Assembly (NCBI GenBank): GCA_964578835.1 | Contig: CAZOEL010000018.1 | Span: 5,088 to 69,087, forward strand | Direction of reading: 5' to 3' | DNA length: 64,000 nt | Source: an uncultured Syntrophobacteraceae bacterium | GTDB lineage: Bacteria; Desulfobacterota; Syntrophobacteria; Syntrophobacterales; Syntrophobacteraceae | Shown: positions 6,308 to 52,592 of the stretch, piece by piece | How the letters are laid out: each line of letters begins with the position of its first letter | Position numbering within the stretch: the first letter of the stretch is position 1 | The notes under the pieces: model-generated | Database searches by the model: none | Told to the model about the DNA's origin: nothing | What the model saw: only the letters and a program-made list of their open reading frames with translations | Program-made: the position numbers and the translations under genes

Positions 6308-6568
6308 CACGACTCCTTACCAGGCGCCGCAATCACAGCTCTTGGCCGGGGAAAAGTCCTCGCCGAGAGCTGTTTTGTTTTCACTCTTTCCAGTTTCACA
6401 AGCATCATCCGTTCTCTCCCCATCCAGATCCCATGAAAATGCATCTTTGTTCGAAATACACGCAAGCTTTGTGTCTTTAGAGCCTTTATGATAATAATCG
6501 TTGCGCCTGTCGACAGAATGGTGAGCGCAAAAGGAAAAACACTGTATTCCGAGGGGGGTTGCAAAAAG

Positions 6569-7450
6569 ATGAGCGTCGTCACTCGCAAAAGTTACAAACT
6601 GCGCCTGAAATCGAGAACATTGGAGCTTGGACTCAAGACTTTGGTAATGGGTATTGTGAACGTGACCCCCGACTCCTTTTCCGACGGGGGCAAGCATTTT
6701 GAATTCGATCGAGCTATCGAGCAAGCCCGGCGCATGGTCGATGAAGGGGTGGATATCCTCGACATTGGAGGAGAGTCCACCCGGCCCGACTCCGAGCCGG
6801 TCCCTCTCGATGTGGAGCTGAAAAGAGTAATTCCGTTGATTGAAGCCATTCGGAGCTTCACGGATACACCCATTTCGATCGATACGACAAAAGCCGAAGT
6901 GGCGCAACAAGCGCTGGATCTCGGAGCGGATATCATTAATGACGTGAGCTCCCTGCGATTCGATTCTCACATGGCCGATGTAGCATCCTCTTCCGGAGCC
7001 CCGCTTATTCTCATGCATATGCAGGGAATCCCGAAAACCATGCAGCAGGACCCGCACTATGCTTCTCTGTTTTCCGAAATGATCTCATTTCTCGAGGAGC
7101 GCATCCAGTATGCTGTTGCTCATGGGGTCGACCGCAACCAGATTATCGTCGATCCCGGCATTGGCTTTGGCAAGACTGTAACCCATAACTCGCTCATCAT
7201 CCGCAACCTCGAAATGTTCCAAGCTCTGGACAGGCCGCTGCTTTTGGCTGCGTCGAGGAAGAGATTCATCGGAGCGATTCTGGATCGCCCGGTAGAAGAG
7301 AGGGAAATTGGAACCGCGGTCGTGAACAGCTTTGGCATTGCCGCGGGCGCGCACATCATACGCGTCCACGATGTCGGCTTTCACCGGCAGGCAGCACTTA
7401 TGGCCGACGCCTTGCGCAATTCCGGTCTCAATAATGATTCTCCTATTTGA
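6569..7450 (+). CDS. folP: Dihydropteroate synthase
   Basis: Pterin-binding domain motifs are present: MGIVNVTPDSFSDGG, DIGGESTRP and INDVS. The start is set at ATG 6569 (MSVVTRK...) rather than the ORF-track 6488. The ftsH-folP-glmM order is conserved in many bacteria. Confidence 0.9.
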   Translation: MSVVTRKSYKLRLKSRTLELGLKTLVMGIVNVTPDSFSDGGKHFEFDRAIEQARRMVDEGVDILDIGGESTRPDSEPVPLDVELKRVIPLIEAIRSFTDTPISIDTTKAEVAQQALDLGADIINDVSSLRFDSHMADVASSSGAPLILMHMQGIPKTMQQDPHYASLFSEMISFLEERIQYAVAHGVDRNQIIVDPGIGFGKTVTHNSLIIRNLEMFQALDRPLLLAASRKRFIGAILDRPVEEREIGTAVVNSFGIAAGAHIIRVHDVGFHRQAALMADALRNSGLNNDSPI

Positions 7451-7561
7451 TATTGACAACCATATCCATTCGTGTGATGAAGTGTCATTCTTTCGATCAG
7501 GCTCCCGTGATGTTCGATGAGGGCCTGTTGATTCACTTTTTCTTTTTTTAGGAGCGCGCAG

Positions 7562-8914
7562 ATGGAGAAACTGTTCGGGACTGACGGGATTCGCGGCCTC
7601 GCCAATGTATCCCCCATGACGACAGACATTGCAATGAAGGTCGGCTGCAGCACGGCCCATATTTTCAAGAGCAGCCACAGACGCCCCAAGATCATCATCG
7701 GCAAAGACACCCGGTTGTCCGGATACATGATCGAATACGCCATCACTTCCGGCATATGCTCGATGGGAGTAGACGCTCTTCTGGTAGGCCCCATGCCCAC
7801 GCCCGGAATTGCTTTCCTTACATGCAGCATGCGCGCCGACGCCGGCATAGTCATCTCGGCATCGCACAATCCTCACGAATACAACGGCATAAAGATCTTT
7901 GCCTCCGATGGATACAAGCTGCCCGATGAGATGGAAAGATTCATGGAGCAGCTCATCCTGAGCGGAGAAATAGAGAATCTGCCGCGTCCAGAGCCGAACG
8001 AAATCGGCCGCGCCCGTCGAATCGATGACGCGGAAGGCCGTTATATCGTTTACCTGAAGAATACCTTTCCCCGCTCTTTGACGCTCGAAGGAATCAAAAT
8101 CGTCATCGACTGCGCCCACGGCGCCGCATACAAGGTGGCGCCTCTGGTCTTCGAAGAGCTTGGCGCCGACGTGATCGTTACGGGCGACAGGCCTTCGGGA
8201 AAAAACATCAATAAGGACTGCGGCGCTCTCCACCCCGAGCATATGGCTGCGCTCGTGCGCGAGAACGGCGCCGACGTGGGCTTCGCGCTGGACGGAGACG
8301 CAGACAGGGTCATTTTTGCGGATGAAAAAGGGCAAGTTCTAGACGGAGATCAATTGATGGCGCTTTGCGCTACCCATTATATGAAGAATGGATCTCTCAA
8401 AGAAAACACGGTCGTGGCTACAATCATGAGCAACCTCGGCCTTGAGGTCGCCCTCAAAAGACAGGGCGTCTCCCTTTTGAGGACTCCCGTCGGAGACCGC
8501 TACGTAGTGGAAAGAATGCGTGAAGGGAGCTACAACTTGGGTGGAGAACAATCCGGCCACCTGGTATTTCTTGATTACAGCACCACTGGAGACGGGACTC
8601 TCTCAGCCCTCCAGGTTTTGGCGGTCATGTTGCGAGAAGGAAAGCCTCTCTCGGAATTGAAGAGCATCATGGATCGCTATCCGCAGAAGTTGGTGAATGT
8701 TCCGGTCTGCCGGCCCAGGCGCCTGGATGATATTCCAGAACTGGTGAAGCTCAGGGAAGACATTGAGAAGAGGCTCGGAGATGAAGGCCGTCTGGTAATA
8801 AGGCCCTCCGGCACGGAGCCGGTCATCCGAGTCATGGTGGAAGGCGCCGATCAGAAGACCATCGATGAGACTGCCCAGGAAATGGCGCATAGCATAAAAG
8901 CGCACATGGCGTGA
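7562..8914 (+). CDS. glmM: Phosphoglucosamine mutase
   Basis: 450 aa. It begins [12 protein letters not shown], has the active-site SASHNP, the metal loop DGDADR and GEQSGH. Confidence 0.96.
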
Positions 8915-17064: not shown

Positions 17065-18306
17065 CTAATTGCCTGTGAAGAAATCGAAGAGCTCCACTCC
17101 GTCTCGCAGCCTCAACTCTCGGGCGCGAGCAGCGCGCTCGCAAAAGGTATCCTCAGGACCGGAGGAATTCAGCCCCGACGCCAAAAGATCCACCATTAGA
17201 AAGGGCACGGGATCGCTCACGTGCGTACGCACATGAACGGGCGTGAGATGATCCATTATGACAAGGAGCCGCACTTTATCGAAGCGCCTGGCGCCTTCGA
17301 CAATCGGCCCGACAACTTTTTCGTCGAAGGCTTCTATGGCCTCCAGTTTTTTGCTCAAACTGCCTTCGTGGGACGCCTCGTCGGGGGCCTCGATATGAAC
17401 GTAGACAAATTCGCCTGTTTCAAGCGCCTTCAAAGAAGCGGCCACTTTACCGGCATAATTGGTGTCCAGGTACCCTGTTGCGCCCGGAACGGAGATGGGA
17501 TCGAGCCCGGCGTAGACGCCAAGGCCTTTGAGAAGATCCACCGCCGAGATCATGGCGCCCGTGAGCCCGGCTTTCTCTTTAAGGGTCGGCATGGAGGGCG
17601 CTCTCCCCTGCCCCCAGAGCCAGACGGCGTTCGGTCCGTTCTTCCCGGCAGCCATGCGGTTTCGATTCACGGGATGATCGGCCAGTATGACGCCGGCCTT
17701 TTCCATGAAGGACAAAAGGGCGGGCTCGCTTTCGTACACTTTGCCGTAGGACTCGATGGGCTGACCCGATATGTCGTGCGGAGGAGTGGTCTTCAAATCG
17801 GATCGTCCTCCCGGCCACACGAGCAAATGACGGTAGCTCACGCCGGGATAGAGCTTCAGCGGGCTCTCCTTTACGGCTTCTTGCAGGGAGGCGATGACTT
17901 CATGGGCTTCGCCGGTAGATATATGGCCCGCAGAATAATCGAGCATTCTGGTAACGCCTTCTCCATCTTTTTCGAGCGTCACCAGATTGCATCGGAAGGC
18001 GACATCATGAGGCTCGAGCCGGACGCCCATGCTGGCCGCCTCGAGAGGCGCCCTTCCCGTGTGGAATCTCGCAGGATCATAGCCCAGAAGGCTCATGTTT
18101 GCGACATCGCTCCCAGGCTCCATCCCTTCCGGAATGGTCTGCACCATTCCCATTAGGCCTGCCTGGACAAGACCGTCGATATTAGGAGTTCGAGCAACTT
18201 CCAGAGGCGTCTTCCCGCCAAGCTCTTCAAGTGGATAATCCCCCATCCCGTCGCCTACCAGGATGATATATTTCCAGTCGGTTTCTCTATCCGTTGTCAT
18301 GGACAT
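17065..18306 (-). CDS. Cofactor-independent phosphoglycerate mutase-like (ApgM/alkaline-phosphatase superfamily) protein
   Basis: 413 aa. Has ILVGDGMGD near the N-terminus, then HIEAPDEASHEG and MDHLTP metal-site motifs of archaeal-type iPGM-like enzymes. It lies immediately downstream of hom. Confidence 0.85.
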   Translation of the reverse strand: MSMTTDRETDWKYIILVGDGMGDYPLEELGGKTPLEVARTPNIDGLVQAGLMGMVQTIPEGMEPGSDVANMSLLGYDPARFHTGRAPLEAASMGVRLEPHDVAFRCNLVTLEKDGEGVTRMLDYSAGHISTGEAHEVIASLQEAVKESPLKLYPGVSYRHLLVWPGGRSDLKTTPPHDISGQPIESYGKVYESEPALLSFMEKAGVILADHPVNRNRMAAGKNGPNAVWLWGQGRAPSMPTLKEKAGLTGAMISAVDLLKGLGVYAGLDPISVPGATGYLDTNYAGKVAASLKALETGEFVYVHIEAPDEASHEGSLSKKLEAIEAFDEKVVGPIVEGARRFDKVRLLVIMDHLTPVHVRTHVSDPVPFLMVDLLASGLNSSGPEDTFCERAARARELRLRDGVELFDFFTGN

Positions 18307-18309
18307 AAC

Positions 18310-19635
18310 TTAATAAATGCTTTCCGTTTCCTGATTTTCGATACGTATGAGCTGAGTCTGACCCGATAGCACCACATCCAGGCTCTCGATTTCTGACATC
18401 GCTCTTCTCACATTCCTTTCGAGGGCTTCATGCGTGAGCATCACTATGGGAACGGCTCCTTCCACCTCGCGTCCCTTTTGTATGACAGCCGCTATGCTGA
18501 TCTGGTTTTCGCCGAGTATTCCGGAAATTTTCGAGAGCACGCCTGGACGATCCAGGGCGGCAAAGCGAAAATAGTAGCAGGTATTCACATCGGCAATGGG
18601 CTTTACCGGAAGATCCTCGAGGCGATCACATCGGAAGCCGAGATGAGGGACCCGGTCCGGAGTATTCCCGATAATGTCTCGCGCAAGATCCATCAGATCG
18701 CTCACTACGGCGCTCCCGGTAGGCAACATTCCTGCGCCGAGGCCGTAGAGCATGATATTGCCGACAGCGTTTCCGCGAATATGAACGGCGTTGTAAGCCC
18801 CTTTTACACCGGCAAGGACATGATTGCTCGGGATCAGAGTCGGGTGGACGCGCATTTCGACGCGGCCGTCGGTATTTCTGGCGATGGCCAGGAGCTTCAG
18901 CTGATAGCCGAATTCCTCGCCGAATTGGATATCGACCGGATCGATTCGGGTGATGCCTTCTGTGTAGACGGAGTCCAGCCGGATGGGCGCCCCGAAGGCG
19001 ATCGATGCGGCAATGGCGAGCTTGTGCGCGGCGTCTCCGCCTCCCACGTCCAAAGTAGGATCGGCTTCGGCGTAGCCTTTGGCCTGAGCCTCCCGGAGGG
19101 CTTCCTCAAAGGAGATTCCCTGCTCGGTCATGCGGGTCAGGATATAGTTGGAGGTGCCGTTGAGTATCCCGAAAATGGTCTCGATCTTATTTGCGGCGAG
19201 TCCTTCCCTCAACGATTTTATGAGCGGGATTCCTCCGGCGACGGAAGCTTCGAAAGCAATCGAGCGATTATTGCGCCTGGCTATCTGAAAAAGCTCGTTG
19301 CCGTCATGAGCCAAAAGAGCCTTGTTTGCGGTGACGACATGCTTTTTGTTCTCGAGGGCTTTGCAGACTACGCTCTTGGCTGCGGTCAACCCTCCGATGA
19401 GCTCGACAACTATGTCAATCTCCGGATCCTCTAAAATGTCGTCGGCCCTGGTTGTGAGCATCTCACGAGGCGGAGAGACAGGTCTTTGCCGTTCAAGGTC
19501 GATATCCGCGACACGCTTCAGATGTATTGGAACGCCCAGGCGCTTTTCTATGATTTCCGCATTTTCCCGAAGCACCTGTATCACGCCGCAGCCTACGGTT
19601 CCCCAGCCGATCAATCCAACTCCAATGGAACGCAT
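18310..19635 (-). CDS. hom: Homoserine dehydrogenase
   Basis: Start at ATG 19635 (MRSIGVGLIGWGTVG). Rossmann N-terminus, a catalytic domain (GILNGTSNYIL) and a C-terminal ACT domain. The longer ORF-track start would overlap the upstream gene. Confidence 0.92.
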   Translation of the reverse strand: MRSIGVGLIGWGTVGCGVIQVLRENAEIIEKRLGVPIHLKRVADIDLERQRPVSPPREMLTTRADDILEDPEIDIVVELIGGLTAAKSVVCKALENKKHVVTANKALLAHDGNELFQIARRNNRSIAFEASVAGGIPLIKSLREGLAANKIETIFGILNGTSNYILTRMTEQGISFEEALREAQAKGYAEADPTLDVGGGDAAHKLAIAASIAFGAPIRLDSVYTEGITRIDPVDIQFGEEFGYQLKLLAIARNTDGRVEMRVHPTLIPSNHVLAGVKGAYNAVHIRGNAVGNIMLYGLGAGMLPTGSAVVSDLMDLARDIIGNTPDRVPHLGFRCDRLEDLPVKPIADVNTCYYFRFAALDRPGVLSKISGILGENQISIAAVIQKGREVEGAVPIVMLTHEALERNVRRAMSEIESLDVVLSGQTQLIRIENQETESIY

Positions 19636-19651
19636 CTTGTCCTCTTTTTTC

Positions 19652-20836
19652 TTATTTTTCAAGCGCCCGCCGCATTCCACGGATGGCTTGCCGGATACGC
19701 ATTTCATTTTCAACGAGAGCAAAGCGCACGTACTCGTCTCCGTATTCTCCGAAGCCAAGGCCGGGAGACACCGCCACCTTCGCCTCCTCGATCAAGAATT
19801 TCGAAAACTCGACCGATCCCATCTTGCGGAATCGCTCGGGAATGCGGGACCAGACAAACATCGTGCCTTTGGGCTTTTCCTGACTCCAGCCGATCCGGTT
19901 CATGCCATCCACCAAAACGTCCCGGCGCGACTTGTAAATCGACACGATCTCATCGACACAGGACTGGTCGGAATTCAGGGCTATGGTTGCAGCTATCTGG
20001 ATGGGCTGAAAGACGCCGTAATCGAGATAGCTCTTGATGCGGGTAAGAGCGCCCACCATTTCGCTGTTCCCGACACAGAAGCCGACTCGCCATCCCGCCA
20101 TGCTGTAACTCTTGGACATCGAAAAGAATTCAACTCCAACGTCTCTGGCCCCCGGCACTTGAAGGAAGCTCGGAGCTTCGTAGCCATCGAAGGTGAGATC
20201 GGCGTACGCCAGATCGTGAATGACCATCAGGCTGTTTTCTTTTGCGAAATCAACTATCTTTCGAAAGAAGTCCAGATCCACTACCGCAGACGTGGGATTA
20301 TGCGGATAAGAGATGATGAGGAGCTTCGGTCTCGGCCATGTCTGCTTCATGGCGCGCTCCAGATCCTCCAGGAAATTCCTGTCCGTCCCGATCGGTATCG
20401 AACGAACATCTCCACCCGCTATGATCGCCGAATAAGGATGAATGGGATAGGTCGGATTGGGGGCAAACACAACGTCTCCCGGGCTGATCAGGACGAGCAC
20501 GAGATGAGAAAGTCCCTCCTTCGCCCCAATAGTCACCACTGCTTCACTCTCGGGGTCGATGTCCACGTCGTAGCGTCTCTTATACCACTTGGCGATTCCC
20601 TCCCGAAGCTTGGTAATGCCGCGAGAAGCCGAATAGCGGTGATTGTGCGGCTTTTGCACCGCCTCAACAAGCTTGTCGATGATGTGCGGCGGGGTCGCGA
20701 GGTCGGGGTTCCCCATTCCCAAATCGATTATGTCCTCGCCTGCGCGTCGCTTTTCCATTTTCAAAGCGTTCACCTGGGCGAAGACATAGGGCGGCAATCG
20801 ATACATGCGGCTGCATTGAGTGATATTCAAATTCAT
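19652..20836 (-). CDS. Pyridoxal-phosphate aminotransferase, class I (AlaC/aspartate-alanine type)
   Basis: 394 aa with [18 protein letters not shown] and the [14 protein letters not shown] lysine motif. Confidence 0.9.
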
Positions 20837-21119
20837 GACTTCTCCCCTTTTAGGCTCCTCGTAAATGAAGATTGAGAAAAAATATCTTAGTGATTCCAGG
20901 ATGTCAAAACATTCTTCGATAAAGCTTTCCCCTCTTCCGCCATCATGAAAACAGGTTGCCGGCTCAGAAGAATTTCTATCCCAGATCCGGGCGCAACCTC
21001 ACAAGTGGGAAAGACCTTGAACTCCGGCCAATCGTTCTGTAAATTTAGTTTTACAGGACGATGTCCCCAGCTAGACGGATGTTTTGAGAACACCCAATAA
21101 TAAGGAAGAAGGCAAACTG

Positions 21120-23045
21120 ATGAAGCAAGTAGTCTTAGGCACTGCCGGTCACATCGATCACGGAAAAACTTCGCTCATCAGGGCTCTGACGGGCATCGAC
21201 ACGGACCGGCTCAAGGAGGAGAAGCTTCGGGGCATCACCATCGAGCTCGGCTTCGCTCATATGGAGCTGCCCAATGGTGAGCGGCTTGGCATCGTAGACG
21301 TCCCGGGCCATGAGCGCTTTGTGCGCCATATGGTGGCCGGCGCAACCGGAATCGATCTCGTGGCGCTCGTCATTGCCGCCGATGAAGGCGTCATGCCCCA
21401 AACCCGCGAGCACATGGAAATATGCCAGCTTTTGCAGGTCAAGAAAGGACTCGTAGTCCTTACGAAAATAGATATGGTGGAAGATCCCGAGTGGGTGGAA
21501 ATGGTGCGGGACGATGTGGCGGAGTTCATGAAGGGAACCTTCCTTGAGGGAGCGCCCATCATTCCGGTCTCCGCCATCACGAAGGAAGGCATGGATGAGC
21601 TGCGTCAGGCCTTGACCGCTCTGGTGGATGAAGTGGAGCCTCGCAGTGCGGACGGACCATTCAGGCTCTCCGTGGATCGAGTGTTCAGCATGCGCGGCTT
21701 CGGTACGGTCGTGACCGGCACCAGCCTCTCCGGCACGGTGCGCATAGGAGACCCCGTAACCGTTTACCCATCCGAGCACAAGACCAAGGTGCGAGGACTC
21801 CAAGTCCACAATGACGAAGTCGAAACGGTGCTGCCAGGACAGCGCACGGCCATAAACCTTCAGAGCATCGAGCGCATTCTCATCGAGCGCGGCAACGTGA
21901 TAGCAACCCCCGGCGCCCTGGTTGCCACCCATATGATAGATGTTTATCTGACGCTTCTCGAGAGCGCTCCGCGGCCGCTCAAGAACCGCGCAAAGATAAG
22001 GTTTCATACGGGAACCGCCGAGCACCTGGGAACAGCCGTGCTTCTAGACGCTGAAGAGCTTGCCCCGGGAAAAGCGGGCTTTATCCAGATACGCCTCGAT
22101 CAGCCCATCGCCGCTCTGCGGGGAGACCGCTTTGTCATCCGCTCTTATTCTCCCGTTCAGACCATAGGCGGCGGCAGCATTCTGCACCCGCTTCCGGGAA
22201 AGCACAAAGGGCACGGCAAGCTCGAGGCGGCGACAGCCCTAAGAACTCTTCTCGAAGGGGACGAGCCAAGCATCATCTTGTGGCACATTCGGGACGCCGG
22301 TCCGGCGGGCTTGAGCGAAGAAGACCTGCGCGTGAGGGCGAATGTTCCTCCAAAGCTTTTGGAAAAAACCCTTCAGCTTTTCATAAGCCAGAAGAAAGCC
22401 ATCCTCTACGACAAAGACAATCGACGCCTGCTTCATCCCGATACGTTGGAGAGCCTCAAGGAGACCGTTGTTGAAGCGCTGGACGACTATCACAAGCGTT
22501 TCCCTCTAAAAACCGGCATGCCCAAAGAAGAGCTTTCCGCGCAACTCCCAAAGCAAGCGGACGCCAAGCTCTACAACTTCGTTCTGCGCAGACTGGCGGA
22601 AGAGGAAAAGATAGTCCAGGAAATGGAATGGGTGCGCCTTGCTTCACATAAGATCGACCTCACAAAAGATGAGCAGGCGATTCGCCAAAAGATAGAAAAG
22701 GCGTTTCAAGATGCGGGACTTCAGCCGCCGTTCATGAAAGATGTGACGGCGAAGCTTCCGGGAACGCCCCGCCAGCATCAGGACGTCATCGAATGGATGC
22801 TCACGCAGGGGATTCTCATAAAAGCCAAAGAGGATATCTACTTTCACTCCACCGCCCTCAATGAGCTGCAGAGCCGCCTCATCGGCTTTCTCAAAGAGCA
22901 TGGAGAGATCACAACCCCCCAGTTCAAGGAAATGACTCAGGTGAGCCGCAAATACACCATCCCTCTGCTGGAATACTTCGATTCGCAGCGCATCACGATC
23001 CGCATTGGAGACACGCGCAGGCTGCGCGAGAGCAGGGTTGGTTGA
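21120..23045 (+). CDS. selB: Selenocysteine-specific translation elongation factor SelB
   Basis: ATG 21120 after AAGGAAG. GTPase motifs [16 protein letters not shown] and TKID are followed by about 300 aa of winged-helix C-terminal domains, as in bacterial SelB. Confidence 0.92.
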
Positions 23046-23110
23046 TTGGCGGAGGCGCGCGCCGGGCCCAATCAGGAAGTTGGAAGCTGAACCAGGAAAG
23101 GAATTCCTTC

Positions 23111-23401
23111 ATGTTGAAACATATAGTCTTTTTCAAGTTCAAGCAGGATGTCCCGGATGCGGATATTTCCAATCTCGAGCAAAAGCTTGCCGCGCTCCCG
23201 GCGCTCATCCCCGAGATAAAAGGATATGAATTCGGTCGCGACATCATCCACTCGGAAAGGTCCTTCGACTTTGCGCTGGTTTCGGCTTTTGACGATCTCG
23301 ATGCATTGAAGCGCTACCAGATGCATCCAGCCCATGTCGAAGTGCTCAACAAGGTCCGAACGATGTGCGAAAGGATTCATGCGGTGGATTTCGAATACTA
23401 G
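23111..23401 (+). CDS. Dabb (stress-responsive alpha/beta barrel) domain protein
   Basis: 96 aa, with MLKHIVFFKFK ... YEFG ... HPAH, typical of Dabb domains. Confidence 0.8.
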   Translation: MLKHIVFFKFKQDVPDADISNLEQKLAALPALIPEIKGYEFGRDIIHSERSFDFALVSAFDDLDALKRYQMHPAHVEVLNKVRTMCERIHAVDFEY

Positions 23402-23411
23402 GCCCTGCGAT

Positions 23412-23885
23412 ATGCCGCCAAAGCAAACGCACATTTACGACTACTACATTGACGAGCGCGGCGATTGGCTCTGCGAGGGAAACCCGGTAACCGATCCCGA
23501 CCTTTTTCGCCTGCTCAGCCGCTCCCTCTTCCAGGATAAGAGCGGGTACTTCGTCCGCTGCGAAGGCGAAGTCCATCCCGTGCGAGTTTCGGATGCGCCG
23601 CTTTGGATTCGCTACATTCATGCGCAACAGAGCTGCGACGGGAAATTGCTCGGCGTTGAAATCGAGCTTCAAGACGGGCGCAGGGAACCGCTCGCACCGG
23701 AGACGCTCACGATCTCAAACAACGACGCTCTTTACTGCCTCGCAACGGCCAGACGCATGAAAGCCCGGTTTGGAAAAGTGGCCTATTATGAGCTCACGCG
23801 CCATGTGGAAATGGAGGAGAATGAAGAGAAATTTCACCTTTCCATCGACGGGCGCAGGTATGACATTCAAATGCTTGATTTATGA
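23412..23885 (+). CDS. DUF1285-like protein
   Basis: 157 aa. YYIDERGDWLCEGNPVTDPDLFRLL ... VSDAPLWI resembles the DUF1285 family. The assignment is from memory. Confidence 0.65.
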   Translation: MPPKQTHIYDYYIDERGDWLCEGNPVTDPDLFRLLSRSLFQDKSGYFVRCEGEVHPVRVSDAPLWIRYIHAQQSCDGKLLGVEIELQDGRREPLAPETLTISNNDALYCLATARRMKARFGKVAYYELTRHVEMEENEEKFHLSIDGRRYDIQMLDL

Positions 23886-49929: not shown

Positions 49930-50808
49930 CTATGCTTTTTCGTCCGGCGGCCCTCCCTTAACGGAGGAACGCACAACGAAATCCAAAAAGGCGGAGCTTT
50001 CCTCATACGCGCCGCCGCAGAAGTCTTTTCCTAAATGCTTGGAGCTTTGCTCGAAGTCTTTGATGAAAGCATCCAAATCTGCATCATCATACCATTTGTC
50101 GTAAGATTCCAACCCTTGTTTGAGCTGATCCAGGATTTCCCTCGTATATGGATTCATCTTGGCGATGGCGGAATAGAGCTCGGGACTCTGGGAAAACATT
50201 CTTCCGACCAAGTTTATTTCCATCCTGTAAATGGGGCTGGTGTAAGCCATGGTCTCCGCAATATCAACCCCGAGCTCCCTCAGAACCCTGCCCTTCAGCA
50301 TTGTCAGCATATGGAAAAGCACCTGAATGATGCTCATCATGCGGTCATGCTCCTCGGGGGCGCATTCTTTGACCCGGATTCCGGCATCGGTAAAGAGCCT
50401 CGCGATGCGCCGCCACATCGAAGGCTCGATGCGCACGGGACAAGCCACCATGCTCTGTCCCGCAAAGGTCTCTATCCTTCCGCCAAACATCGGGTGCAGC
50501 CCCAGCACGGATGCTCTGGAAGCAAGCATTTCCTTAACGGTCGCAACTTTGAGGCTCGTCAGATCGATAAGCAGTTGATCGGGACGCGTATGCGGGACAA
50601 GCTCCCGAATAATGTCCACCGAGAGGTGGAGAGGGACCGCGAACACTACGATATCCGACGCCTCCACGGCTTGGCGGCTACTGAGCCCCGTTTGTAGGTC
50701 GGCTACTTCAACCCGATACCCGCGTTCCCGGAAAAAGGCGGAAAAAAGCCGTCCCATCTCTCCCAAGCCTCCGATTACTCCCACAGCAGAACCAGGCCCC
50801 CACTGCAT
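49930..50808 (-). CDS. tyrA: Prephenate dehydrogenase
   Basis: VGVIGGLGEMG Rossmann motif, DLTSLK, GLHPMFG, EEHDRMMSIIQVLFH and SPIYRMEINLVGR. ATG 50808 has the best RBS (GAGGA, 7-nt spacing). In-frame alternatives are 50868, 50931 and 50949. Confidence 0.85.
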   Translation of the reverse strand: MQWGPGSAVGVIGGLGEMGRLFSAFFRERGYRVEVADLQTGLSSRQAVEASDIVVFAVPLHLSVDIIRELVPHTRPDQLLIDLTSLKVATVKEMLASRASVLGLHPMFGGRIETFAGQSMVACPVRIEPSMWRRIARLFTDAGIRVKECAPEEHDRMMSIIQVLFHMLTMLKGRVLRELGVDIAETMAYTSPIYRMEINLVGRMFSQSPELYSAIAKMNPYTREILDQLKQGLESYDKWYDDADLDAFIKDFEQSSKHLGKDFCGGAYEESSAFLDFVVRSSVKGGPPDEKA

Positions 50809-51028
50809 TGGTTTGTCCTCGCCATTCTCCCGGCGCTCGCGATCGGACACAAAGCTTTCTTCTCTCATAGGATTCCAACGCCTCGCTTGGACCTTCTTTT
50901 GATAATATCCATGATCTTCTTCGCCTCTCATTCCGCTAGTTCGAATCAACTCTCATTGTAGAACAACAAAACGCTGTCTCACTCCTTACAACCGGCTCAT
51001 GGGCAGACATCGCCCACAAAATAAAAAA

Positions 51029-51223: not shown

Positions 51224-51277
51224 GGCTTTTGGCCAAACGCTCACGCAGCAACTCTTCAAAAGGCGAAAGACAGACGA

Positions 51278-51574
51278 TCAACCAAGATATACAAACACGT
51301 ATTCCCGATCGTTGATGTCAACGACGATCCTGCCGCCTCTCGATTCAGCATAGACAAGCCATCCAGGCTTTTTGCCATTGCATCACTCAACTCTTGGCGA
51401 AAATTCGCCGGATTTCTTATCGAACCACGCCAACAGCATGGCGTCGGGATTAACCTCCAGAGCTTTACCATCGGCCAGCGTCCTGGCGGCCGAGAAGGTG
51501 AGATCCCGATCGGGCGCATTCACGCACACAGGAGAATTCAACATTTCACGGGTAAGCTCGACGCAGGGAGACAT
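51278..51574 (-). CDS. Candidate selenoprotein (98 codons) with in-frame TGA-TGC (U-C) motif
   Basis: ATG 51574 follows AAAGGA with 6-nt spacing. The frame is open except for TGA at 51385..51383 and ends at TGA 51280..51278. Product: MSPCVELTREMLNSPVCVNAPDRDLTFSAARTLADGKALEVNPDAMLLAWFDKKSGEFSPRVE-U-CNGKKPGWLVYAESRGGRIVVDINDREYVFVYLG. Confidence 0.55.
51356..51370 (-). promoter_or_regulatory. SECIS-like hairpin downstream of the in-frame TGA
   Basis: In the mRNA, AAGCC-UGGAU-GGCUU starts 13 nt after the UGA. The apical loop contains GG. Flanking A/U pairs could extend the stem with bulges. Confidence 0.35.
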
Positions 51575-52027
51575 AGATTTTCCTTTCCATGTTGAGTATA
51601 GATGACTTGAGCTTCCATAAAAGAGCATCTTGCCGATCCGCCTCTTTTATCTTTACTCACAAAATACATTATCCATTAGTGCCAAAATACTCTCTTGACC
51701 GTATATCATCACACTGCACTCATGATGTAAAGTGGCTCCCAGATACCCCCATATGCTTCAACCGCCCTTTGCACCATCGAGTAAAACCACAGCGCCAGGA
51801 GGCCGGGTCCCCCTCCCCGGCCTCTCGCCCGCCCCTGAGCGCGAGCCTTCACTTGATCGAAATGCCGCATTTTCACAGGCATTCTCCTTTGAAGCATTCT
51901 CTTTCATAGGCGGCAAGACGCTGCCCAACAACAACATTCTTATTCCTCAATATGAGAACTACTGATTATTGACTCGTCAATCTGGTTAGTACATGTTATT
52001 TGCATTAGTAACGGTTGACCGGCGGGG

Positions 52028-52163: not shown

Positions 52164-52592
52164 TTGAAGACGAATACAACACCCTTGGTAGTAATGGCAG
52201 ACGATGACGACGACGATTGTATGCTTGCCAAGGACGCCTTTGCAGAAAGTCTCGCCCCGGGCGCCATTCACTGTGTTGAGGATGGCATAGAGCTTTTGGA
52301 TTATCTCGAAGGCATCGAAGAGGATGGAATCAACGACCGAAAAGATCTTCCAGCCCTGATTCTGCTCGATCTGAACATGCCAAGAAAGGATGGACGTCAG
52401 GCTCTCAAGGAAATCAAGTCGACTCCCGCTTTTCAGGGCATCCCGATTGTTGTGCTCACCACATCCAGAGAGGAAAGAGACATCATCTTCAGTCGCGAGA
52501 TGGGCGCCAACAGCTTCATAACCAAGCCCGCAACCTTTGACGAGTGGGTGGATATGATGAAATCTCTAGTGGAAAAATGGCTCCTCTATTAA
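52164..52592 (+). CDS. Stand-alone response-regulator receiver protein (CheY/Rcp1-like)
   Basis: 142 aa with a TTG start after AGGAGAGG. Has the acidic pocket DDDDDD, the phospho-acceptor context LILLDLNMP, plus LTTS and KP. Confidence 0.85.
   Translation: MKTNTTPLVVMADDDDDDCMLAKDAFAESLAPGAIHCVEDGIELLDYLEGIEEDGINDRKDLPALILLDLNMPRKDGRQALKEIKSTPAFQGIPIVVLTTSREERDIIFSREMGANSFITKPATFDEWVDMMKSLVEKWLLY

Follow-up and report, generated by a model that had tools for sequence, protein, structure and literature searches.

On the reverse strand of the window, by which we mean the whole stretch of 64,000 nucleotides (nt) analysed here (contig CAZOEL010000018.1 of an uncultured Syntrophobacteraceae bacterium), an open reading frame (ORF) at 51383..51628 is terminated by a TGA at 51385..51383, and the same frame stays open for 34 further codons (CNGKKPGWLVYAESRGGRIVVDINDREYVFVYLG) up to a second TGA at 51280..51278. 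An earlier interpretation, made from the letters of the DNA and referred to below as the sequence-only reading, had proposed that the two parts form a single gene for a selenoprotein. Its description of the site is borne out by the sequence, the translation and the ORF list: the first TGA is directly followed by TGC (51382..51380), AAAGGA (51586..51581) stands 6 nt ahead of the ATG at 51574, and a further ORF, 51256..51519 (-), overlaps in a different frame. Homologue N-termini (MxxC..LT+EML) favour the ATG at 51574 over the ATG at 51628 of a public 81-amino-acid (aa) call, and 98-aa homologues begin at the equivalent MxxC when the sequences are compared. As argued below, 51574..51278 (-) is very probably a genuine selenocysteine (Sec)-decoding gene, whose product is a 98-residue protein of the AF1514/DUF5619 family with Sec at codon 64. 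The features of the locus, including the candidate Sec insertion sequence (SECIS), are as follows:

51278..51574, (-): complete coding sequence (CDS) of the predicted AF1514/DUF5619-family selenoprotein, 98 aa, delimited by translation, Pfam match and homologue length
51383..51385, (-): proposed Sec codon, an in-frame UGA that is codon (and residue) 64 and falls in the column of the first Cys in the CC pair of the family
51380..51382, (-): TGC codon of Cys65, second position of the CC pair, where most Sec orthologues have Ser or Gly
51563..51565, (-): TGC codon of Cys4, the N-terminal Cys that is invariant in bacterial alignments and a candidate partner of Sec64
51581..51586, (-): Shine-Dalgarno-like AAAGGA, 6 nt from the ATG at 51574
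51280..51278, (-): TGA stop codon of the read-through gene, as read in the sequence
51356..51370, (-): AAGCC-UGGAU-GGCUU, candidate SECIS core, nt +16..+30 from the U of the UGA; both +22 and +23, in the loop, are G
51348..51381, (-): possible extended SECIS stem-loop (tentative), nt +5..+38, with lower GCA/UGC and middle GGCA/UGUC helices suggested by RNAalifold
21084..23045, (+): selB, encoding the Sec-specific elongation factor, trans-acting and 28 kb from the gene, recognised by its Pfam domains

With Cys written for U, the read-through product matches Pfam family PF18505 (DUF5619) with an E-value of 7.5e-28 and 96.8 bits against a cut-off of 25, which, taken as a sequence match, is far beyond chance. 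The match covers profile positions 3-85 of 85 and residues 15-96 of the product, and thus runs across the TGA. The window product is a member of the AF1514/DUF5619 family; no NCBIfam (release 20.0) model matches it at E-values up to 1. Among 5.8 billion proteins searched, 214 relatives were found, many of them 98 aa long and the closest 77% identical, and 30 of the 34 residues after the TGA are identical to those of the closest Cys homologue, P0001. The family is small: an exhaustive hidden Markov model (HMM) search of 1.84 billion cluster representatives retrieved 333 clusters (50% identity) at E-values up to 1e-3.

Among the best 120 of the 214 relatives, the two columns corresponding to the UGA and Cys65 read Cys-Cys in 116. 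The exceptions are P0015, which is a truncated call of the window gene itself, one S-C, one C-G and P0016, which reads 'W-G'. In the window product U-C is followed by NGKKPGWLVYAESRGG, in agreement with the family pattern of CC and KPxW-x-YAESRGG. The sole solved relative is AF_1514 of Archaeoglobus fulgidus (Protein Data Bank (PDB) entry 3c0f), where the aligned site reads VYCCGEKPWEVYACNRG. The structure was modelled on P0001, a Cys form 77% identical to the window product. The AlphaFold model (predicted local distance difference test score 92.6) is one compact domain in which the CC pair is placed in a strand-to-helix loop, with the last helix (residues 71-78) and strands 81-87 and 92-97 following residue 64. 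A Foldseek search of the PDB with this model found 3c0f as the only fold match (E-value 1.7e-6, template modelling scores 0.71/0.81) and no other informative fold relative.

The same TGA is found in other genomes. A DNA pattern fixing the TGA relative to the P..WLxYAESRGG codons was searched for in one genome per species of 185,579 species and matched 11 species genomes, all from Syntrophobacteraceae, including the isolate Desulforhabdus sp. TSK. In all 11 the frame continues past the TGA into the conserved C-terminal half, and TGA is also the stop codon in most of them. Metagenome contigs were scanned with a pattern allowing TGA or TGY at this position, which gave at least 120 loci; among the matches listed (120), 13 have TGA and 107 a Cys codon, and the 13 TGA contigs all retain an intact half 3' of the TGA. 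Taken together, TGA occupies the exact column in 25 sequences from at least 11 species, with the downstream half conserved. The sequence-only reading had suggested asking whether homologues keep Cys or an in-frame TGA at this column or instead terminate there, and the answer came out in its favour, with the 116 Cys-Cys homologues of 120 on the one hand and the 25 TGA sequences on the other.

Further forms came from truncated records. At least 9 of the best 150 representatives (of the 333 clusters) end exactly at profile position 63 or 64, and the DNA of five early-ending representatives was examined and gave TGA forms missed by the strict pattern. The more divergent Sec forms L139 and L141 are U-S-C and U-S, respectively. 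In L135-L137 a Cys precedes the TGA (C-U, VEC-TGA-GTKKKPGW, on 6 contigs; L135:1501-1920); these forms have one additional residue before the conserved Pro, so the assignment of their Sec column is ambiguous. L138:280-556, from a single 556-nt contig, is also C-U (VVC-TGA-GEDKPTW), and its hairpin differs, being a strong one of 9 bp at nt 20-44 after the UGA with a minimum free energy (MFE) of -22.2 and a z-score of -2.5. Lineages may thus differ in which Cys of the CC pair gives way to Sec, as the C-U and U-C forms indicate. As for P0016 (JGI sample 3300075153, 927-nt contig), W stands both at the Sec column and where the protein would normally end, and 17 more residues follow; the protein alone suggests a further Sec form whose TGA was called as Trp, and the wrong genetic code may have been chosen for that contig because of the in-frame Sec codon.

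One more U-C form, L140:430-690, lies on an 828-nt contig with 1.06x coverage and has no G in the first two loop positions; a sequencing error may account for its TGA, in which case it is no real Sec form.

In a neighbour-joining tree of 218 unique sequences, indicative only as it is built on about 98 residues, the Sec forms fall into at least three clades, with Cys forms interspersed. The window sequence groups with L012 and L115, beside the Cys forms P0001, P0002, P0004 and P0005.

Conservation at the protein level downstream of the TGA, the absence of which would have counted against the sequence-only reading, was confirmed in 25 Sec forms: the ratio of nonsynonymous to synonymous differences per site (pN/pS, Nei-Gojobori) is 0.22 over the 29 codons after the TGA and 0.24 over the 20 codons before it. 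Since pN/pS is equal on both sides, the downstream half is under the same protein-level selection as the upstream half.

The window was also said to encode SelB, and the Pfam domains of the ORF at 21084..23045 (+) uphold this: the ORF is intact and carries GTP_EFTU, EF-Tu domain 2, Beta-barrel_SelB, SelB-wing_2 and SelB-wing_3. Syntrophobacteraceae are heavy Sec users, and S. fumaroxidans, the type organism, has 39 selenoprotein genes (PMC12013277).

The candidate SECIS was compared with the published bacterial SECIS (bSECIS) consensus. In this consensus (PMC13188914 Fig. 2) the loop has 3-9 nt, the upper stem 4 bp or more, and the MFE is -7.5 kcal/mol or lower; the first two loop positions include a G, mostly with G or U after it, and the UGA and the loop are 16-37 nt apart. 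The window element conforms to it, with a 5-nt loop (UGGAU), a 5-bp stem, a spacing of 17 nt and -12.0 kcal/mol, the last value being from a constrained fold in which weak lower helices are counted in. The hairpin AAGCC-UGGAU-GGCUU is thus present where the sequence-only reading had placed it, at 51370..51356 and starting at the 13th nt after the UGA; only four of its five pairs are conserved.

Comparison of Sec and Cys forms points to retention of this element. The loop is NGGNU in all unique Sec forms, and a stem of at least 4 bp together with GG at nt 22-23 is present in 21 of 21 Sec forms versus 20 of 95 Cys forms (Fisher p 4e-12, computed, like all our Sec/Cys contrasts, without phylogenetic correction). 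The four inner pairs are formed in 20 of 20 distinct Sec forms, and the pair 18-28 is never broken in these, being GC in 13, AU in 6 and GU in 1. One of the five core pairs covaries, with a score reached by 4 of 500 shuffles, in a helix that is short and sequences that are related. A Lys codon AAA always occurs with Leu TTR in Sec forms (7/7), versus 2/30 in Cys forms, 28 of which combine AAA with CTN and thereby have a mismatch. Several lineages have a longer stem, L005 and L009 with 9 bp, L141 with 8 bp and L139 with 5 + 5 bp. RNAalifold gives a weak consensus of 7 pairs and -5.4 kcal/mol with inconsistently conserved lower helices, and over nt 4-48 the folding energy of Sec forms is no different from that of Cys forms.

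Besides the uncorrected phylogeny of these contrasts, several results weigh against the interpretation of the locus as a Sec-decoding gene. The bSECIS criteria have low specificity here, being satisfied by 20 of 21 Sec forms and also by 46 of 95 Cys forms. The fifth pair of the hairpin is kept in only 5 of 20 Sec forms, and the core is short, with 4 conserved bp that alone amount to -1.7 to -4.7 kcal/mol. The 66-nt region about the UGA is no more stably folded than shuffled sequences (z -0.58), synonymous sites of the hairpin codons show no extra constraint in Sec relative to Cys forms, and no Rfam family was found, either in the whole window at the gathering threshold or around the gene at E-values up to 10. 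As to the decoding machinery, ARAGORN found no tRNA gene, and hence no tRNA-Sec, in the 64-kb window, and selA and selD are neither beside selB nor elsewhere within the window.

Many Cys forms satisfy the SECIS criteria because the hairpin is largely set by the conserved K-P-G/A-W-L residues (AAR CCN GSN UGG YUN). It pre-exists in the family and is therefore not strong independent proof of Sec. The hairpin had been offered as evidence for Sec, and in this respect the claim holds in part: a SECIS-like hairpin is found in every Sec form, yet the argument is weaker than implied, with nearly half of the Cys forms passing too. The hairpin, retained in all Sec forms, is a plausible SECIS.

The mechanism that we propose is modelled on the established bacterial Sec pathway. 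SelB with Sec-tRNASec would be recruited to the ribosome by a short stem-loop within the CDS, 12 nt after the UGA, with the core AAGCC-UGGAU-GGCUU possibly extended by weaker lower helices. The ribosome would then go on translating the conserved C-terminal half until it reached the real stop at 51280..51278. Sec would take the place of the first Cys in the family's vicinal CC pair, and Sec64 might act as a redox-active or metal(loid)-binding selenol. Selenium insertion at the UGA is what we infer from these sequence data.

Among the other explanations, the one that fares best is that the UGA is read through as Cys or Trp by near-cognate or suppressor decoding, independently of SelB and a SECIS. 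The weakness of the hairpin, its presence in Cys homologues and the P0016 gene call, with W both at the TGA column and at the normal stop position, would be in line with it. We nevertheless consider it improbable. The window gene itself stops at a TGA, so the recoding is site-specific, and most orthologues likewise have TGA as their normal stop, which argues against a global reassignment of TGA. Moreover, the column is strictly Cys in homologues, which is a hallmark of Sec; SelB is present; the genome matches all belong to Syntrophobacteraceae, whose type organism has the many selenoprotein genes mentioned above (PMC12013277); and Sec forms always retain a G-containing loop at fdhF-like spacing.

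Alternatively, the UGA might be a true stop, with only a 63-residue N-terminal fragment made and the downstream part conserved for some other reason. Public gene callers do annotate the gene in this way, for example as the 63-aa GKT07271.1 of Desulforhabdus sp. TSK and the 81-aa P0015. A product ending at the TGA would lack one helix and the last two strands of a single compact domain, because these follow residue 64 in the P0001 model; downstream conservation is in the protein frame, as the pN/pS of 0.22 indicates; a separate downstream gene would have neither a start codon nor a ribosome-binding site; and the overlapping ORF 51256..51519 plays no part, the DUF5619 match accounting for the coding frame. 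This explanation is very unlikely. Finally, the TGA might have arisen in an ordinary Cys-type AF1514 gene, either by nonsense mutation or as a mistake of sequencing or assembly; for this speak the single base change from TGC to TGA and the possibly erroneous L140. It can hardly be credited when the same TGA occurs in 21 unique sequences drawn from 11 species genomes and many metagenomes, when purifying selection is the same downstream as upstream, when the frame and natural stop are kept in all TGA forms, and when the truncated product is called, and the TGA present, both on the NCBI contig and in the Logan assembly of run ERR3839026, which may stem from the same sample.

The reading of the locus as a Sec-decoding gene thus being strongly preferred, we turn to the residues involved. 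The sequence-only reading had interpreted U-C as an adjacent redox pair. Adjacent Cys and Sec form the GCUG end of mammalian thioredoxin reductase. In the AF1514 family the pair is not conserved: in the unique Sec forms the residue after U is Ser 17 times, Gly 3 times and Cys 3 times, the last in the window sequence, L012 and L011 only. The Ser after Sec is encoded by AGC in 17 of 17 U-S forms (L003-L006, L009, L013, L037 and others), never by TCN or AGT, which fits either a single-step origin from TGC or a constraint from the lower SECIS helix (G5-C38, C6-G37). Cys forms can lack the second Cys as well, 13 being C-G and 4 C-S. Whole Cys-type clades are of these kinds (C-G in L020, L023, L024, L027, L036, L064, L074 and others, C-S in L032, L091 and L130, all with Cys4 kept), so that the vicinal pair is dispensable even without Sec. 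Position 64 is the functional residue, since it is always Cys or Sec, and a vicinal selenenylsulfide is not the general mechanism, since most Sec forms lack the neighbouring Cys. Cys4, by comparison, is invariant in bacterial alignments and is kept in 22 of 23 unique Sec forms, where it is often the only Cys in the protein. From this pattern of residues Cys4 appears a more likely partner of Sec64 than Cys65, and we infer a Sec64/Cys4 couple or shared ligand site in preference to a vicinal U-C pair. That the two residues have a redox or metal-binding role is a tentative proposal, coming close to an even call.

The genomic surroundings were searched for hints of function. The window gene stands alone, with a response-regulator gene (52164..52592, +) and a PAS sensor gene on one side and a prephenate dehydrogenase gene (49930..50949, -) and a DtxR-type repressor gene on the other; the prephenate dehydrogenase gene lies about 330 nt away, beyond a promoter-like site. 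Across 134 loci no conserved operon or neighbour was found, and the best recurrent neighbours (sensor kinases, an ABC ATPase, a radical-SAM protein, V-ATPase subunits) are generic or on the opposite strand. A thioredoxin gene adjoins the AF1514 gene in only 4 of the 134 loci, three of which are Sec forms. In L011, L013 and L124, which form one clade, a thioredoxin-2-type gene lies directly downstream on the same strand, +221..+683 nt after the TGA, and encodes Zn_ribbon_Thio2 and Thioredoxin domains with a CVYC active site; its product is a possible redox partner of the Sec-form AF1514 protein. Our best guess for the function is selenol/thiol redox chemistry or metal(loid) handling. It is argued from the Sec/Cys logic and from a weak thioredoxin neighbourhood, the gene context being otherwise variable.

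Elsewhere in the window, the opposite strand upstream of selB (17065..23885) carries genes for a class I/II aminotransferase, a homoserine dehydrogenase and a phosphoglycerate mutase. A crude scan of the window, made without homology or SECIS testing, for other ORF pairs joined by a single TGA found none with a Cys-containing redox motif beside the TGA. At 6317..8335 (-), open stretches of 416 and 255 codons lie in one frame on either side of a TGA at 7087 (...DALLEK-TGA-DHFGKQ...); these are probably two adjacent genes.

In the collection of papers searched, no link between DUF5619, AF1514 or PF18505 and selenium was found. Neither the 2026 inventory of 119 prokaryotic selenoprotein families (PMC13188914 Table 1) nor the set of nine that deep-Sep added contains the family. 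Judged by the criteria customary for predicted selenoproteins (PMC1088965), applied here together with those of PMC13188914, it qualifies as a high-confidence predicted new selenoprotein family. We lean, if only somewhat, towards a wider view: that AF1514/DUF5619 proteins make up a prokaryotic selenoprotein family not recognised before, that Sec can stand for either Cys of the CC pair depending on the lineage, and that the K-P-G-W-L codons, 4 codons downstream, would form a latent SECIS enabling repeated Cys-to-Sec switching, followed by loss of the redundant neighbouring Cys.

As had been predicted, gene callers truncate the gene: every public record of a Sec form that was checked ends at about 61-81 residues. 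These records are GKT07271.1 (63 aa, Desulforhabdus sp. TSK, gene DSTSK_05760, L009:4211-4399 region), P0015 (81 aa), P0124 and P0125; GKT07271.1, P0124 and P0125 are fragments of 61-63 aa ending ...SPRVE that are either labelled 'hypothetical protein' or nameless. Sec-aware annotation rules that include the AF1514 family would mend dozens of gene models in Syntrophobacteraceae and related metagenomes. For a family that has had a crystal structure since 2008, Sec use would be the first functional clue, marking residue 64 as a reactive and probably redox or metal(loid)-binding centre, while the replacement pattern points to Cys4, not Cys65, as its partner. A small family with interleaved Cys and Sec clades and a hairpin largely dictated by conserved codons would also offer a compact system for studying the origin of bacterial SECIS elements and Sec codons.

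Several known systems can be compared with the AF1514 selenoprotein. The first is E. coli fdhF, whose SECIS sequence was confirmed in 5,419 E. coli genomes. Like fdhF, the window gene has an intra-CDS stem-loop after the UGA that agrees with the published consensus (PMC13188914), selB is present, and the loop GG lies at nt 22-23 from the U, as do G22 and G23 of the fdhF G22 G23 U24. Unlike in fdhF, the conserved stem is much shorter (4 bp) and without a bulged U, the loop is an NGGNU pentaloop set by the codon for Gly and the U of that for Trp, and the lower helices vary by clade.

The second is AF_1514 itself (3c0f, PF18505), with which the window protein shares a full-length HMM match, the fold, as modelled for the 77%-identical homologue, and the conserved motif VxCC-x3-KP-x-W-x-YAxxRG. 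It differs in having UGA (Sec) in place of the first Cys, and bacterial members carry an extra N-terminal MxxC...EML segment that the crystallised archaeal protein lacks.

Thioredoxin-fold selenoproteins (UxxC/CxxU) resemble it in being small proteins with Sec in place of a conserved Cys and a second conserved Cys as possible partner, and a thioredoxin gene adjoins the AF1514 gene in three Sec loci. However, the AF1514 fold is not thioredoxin-like, 3c0f being the only Foldseek match, and there is no CxxC-type spacing, the candidate partner Cys4 lying 60 residues away in sequence. The CU-motif families SaoL, SaoC, HgcA, KCU-star and MbdU (PMC13188914) likewise have Sec for one Cys of a CC dipeptide, and their C-U order also occurs in AF1514 (L135-L138), though U-C, U-S and U-G are commoner there. 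In contrast to these families, to which AF1514 is unrelated in fold and sequence, the neighbouring Cys has been lost in most of its Sec forms.

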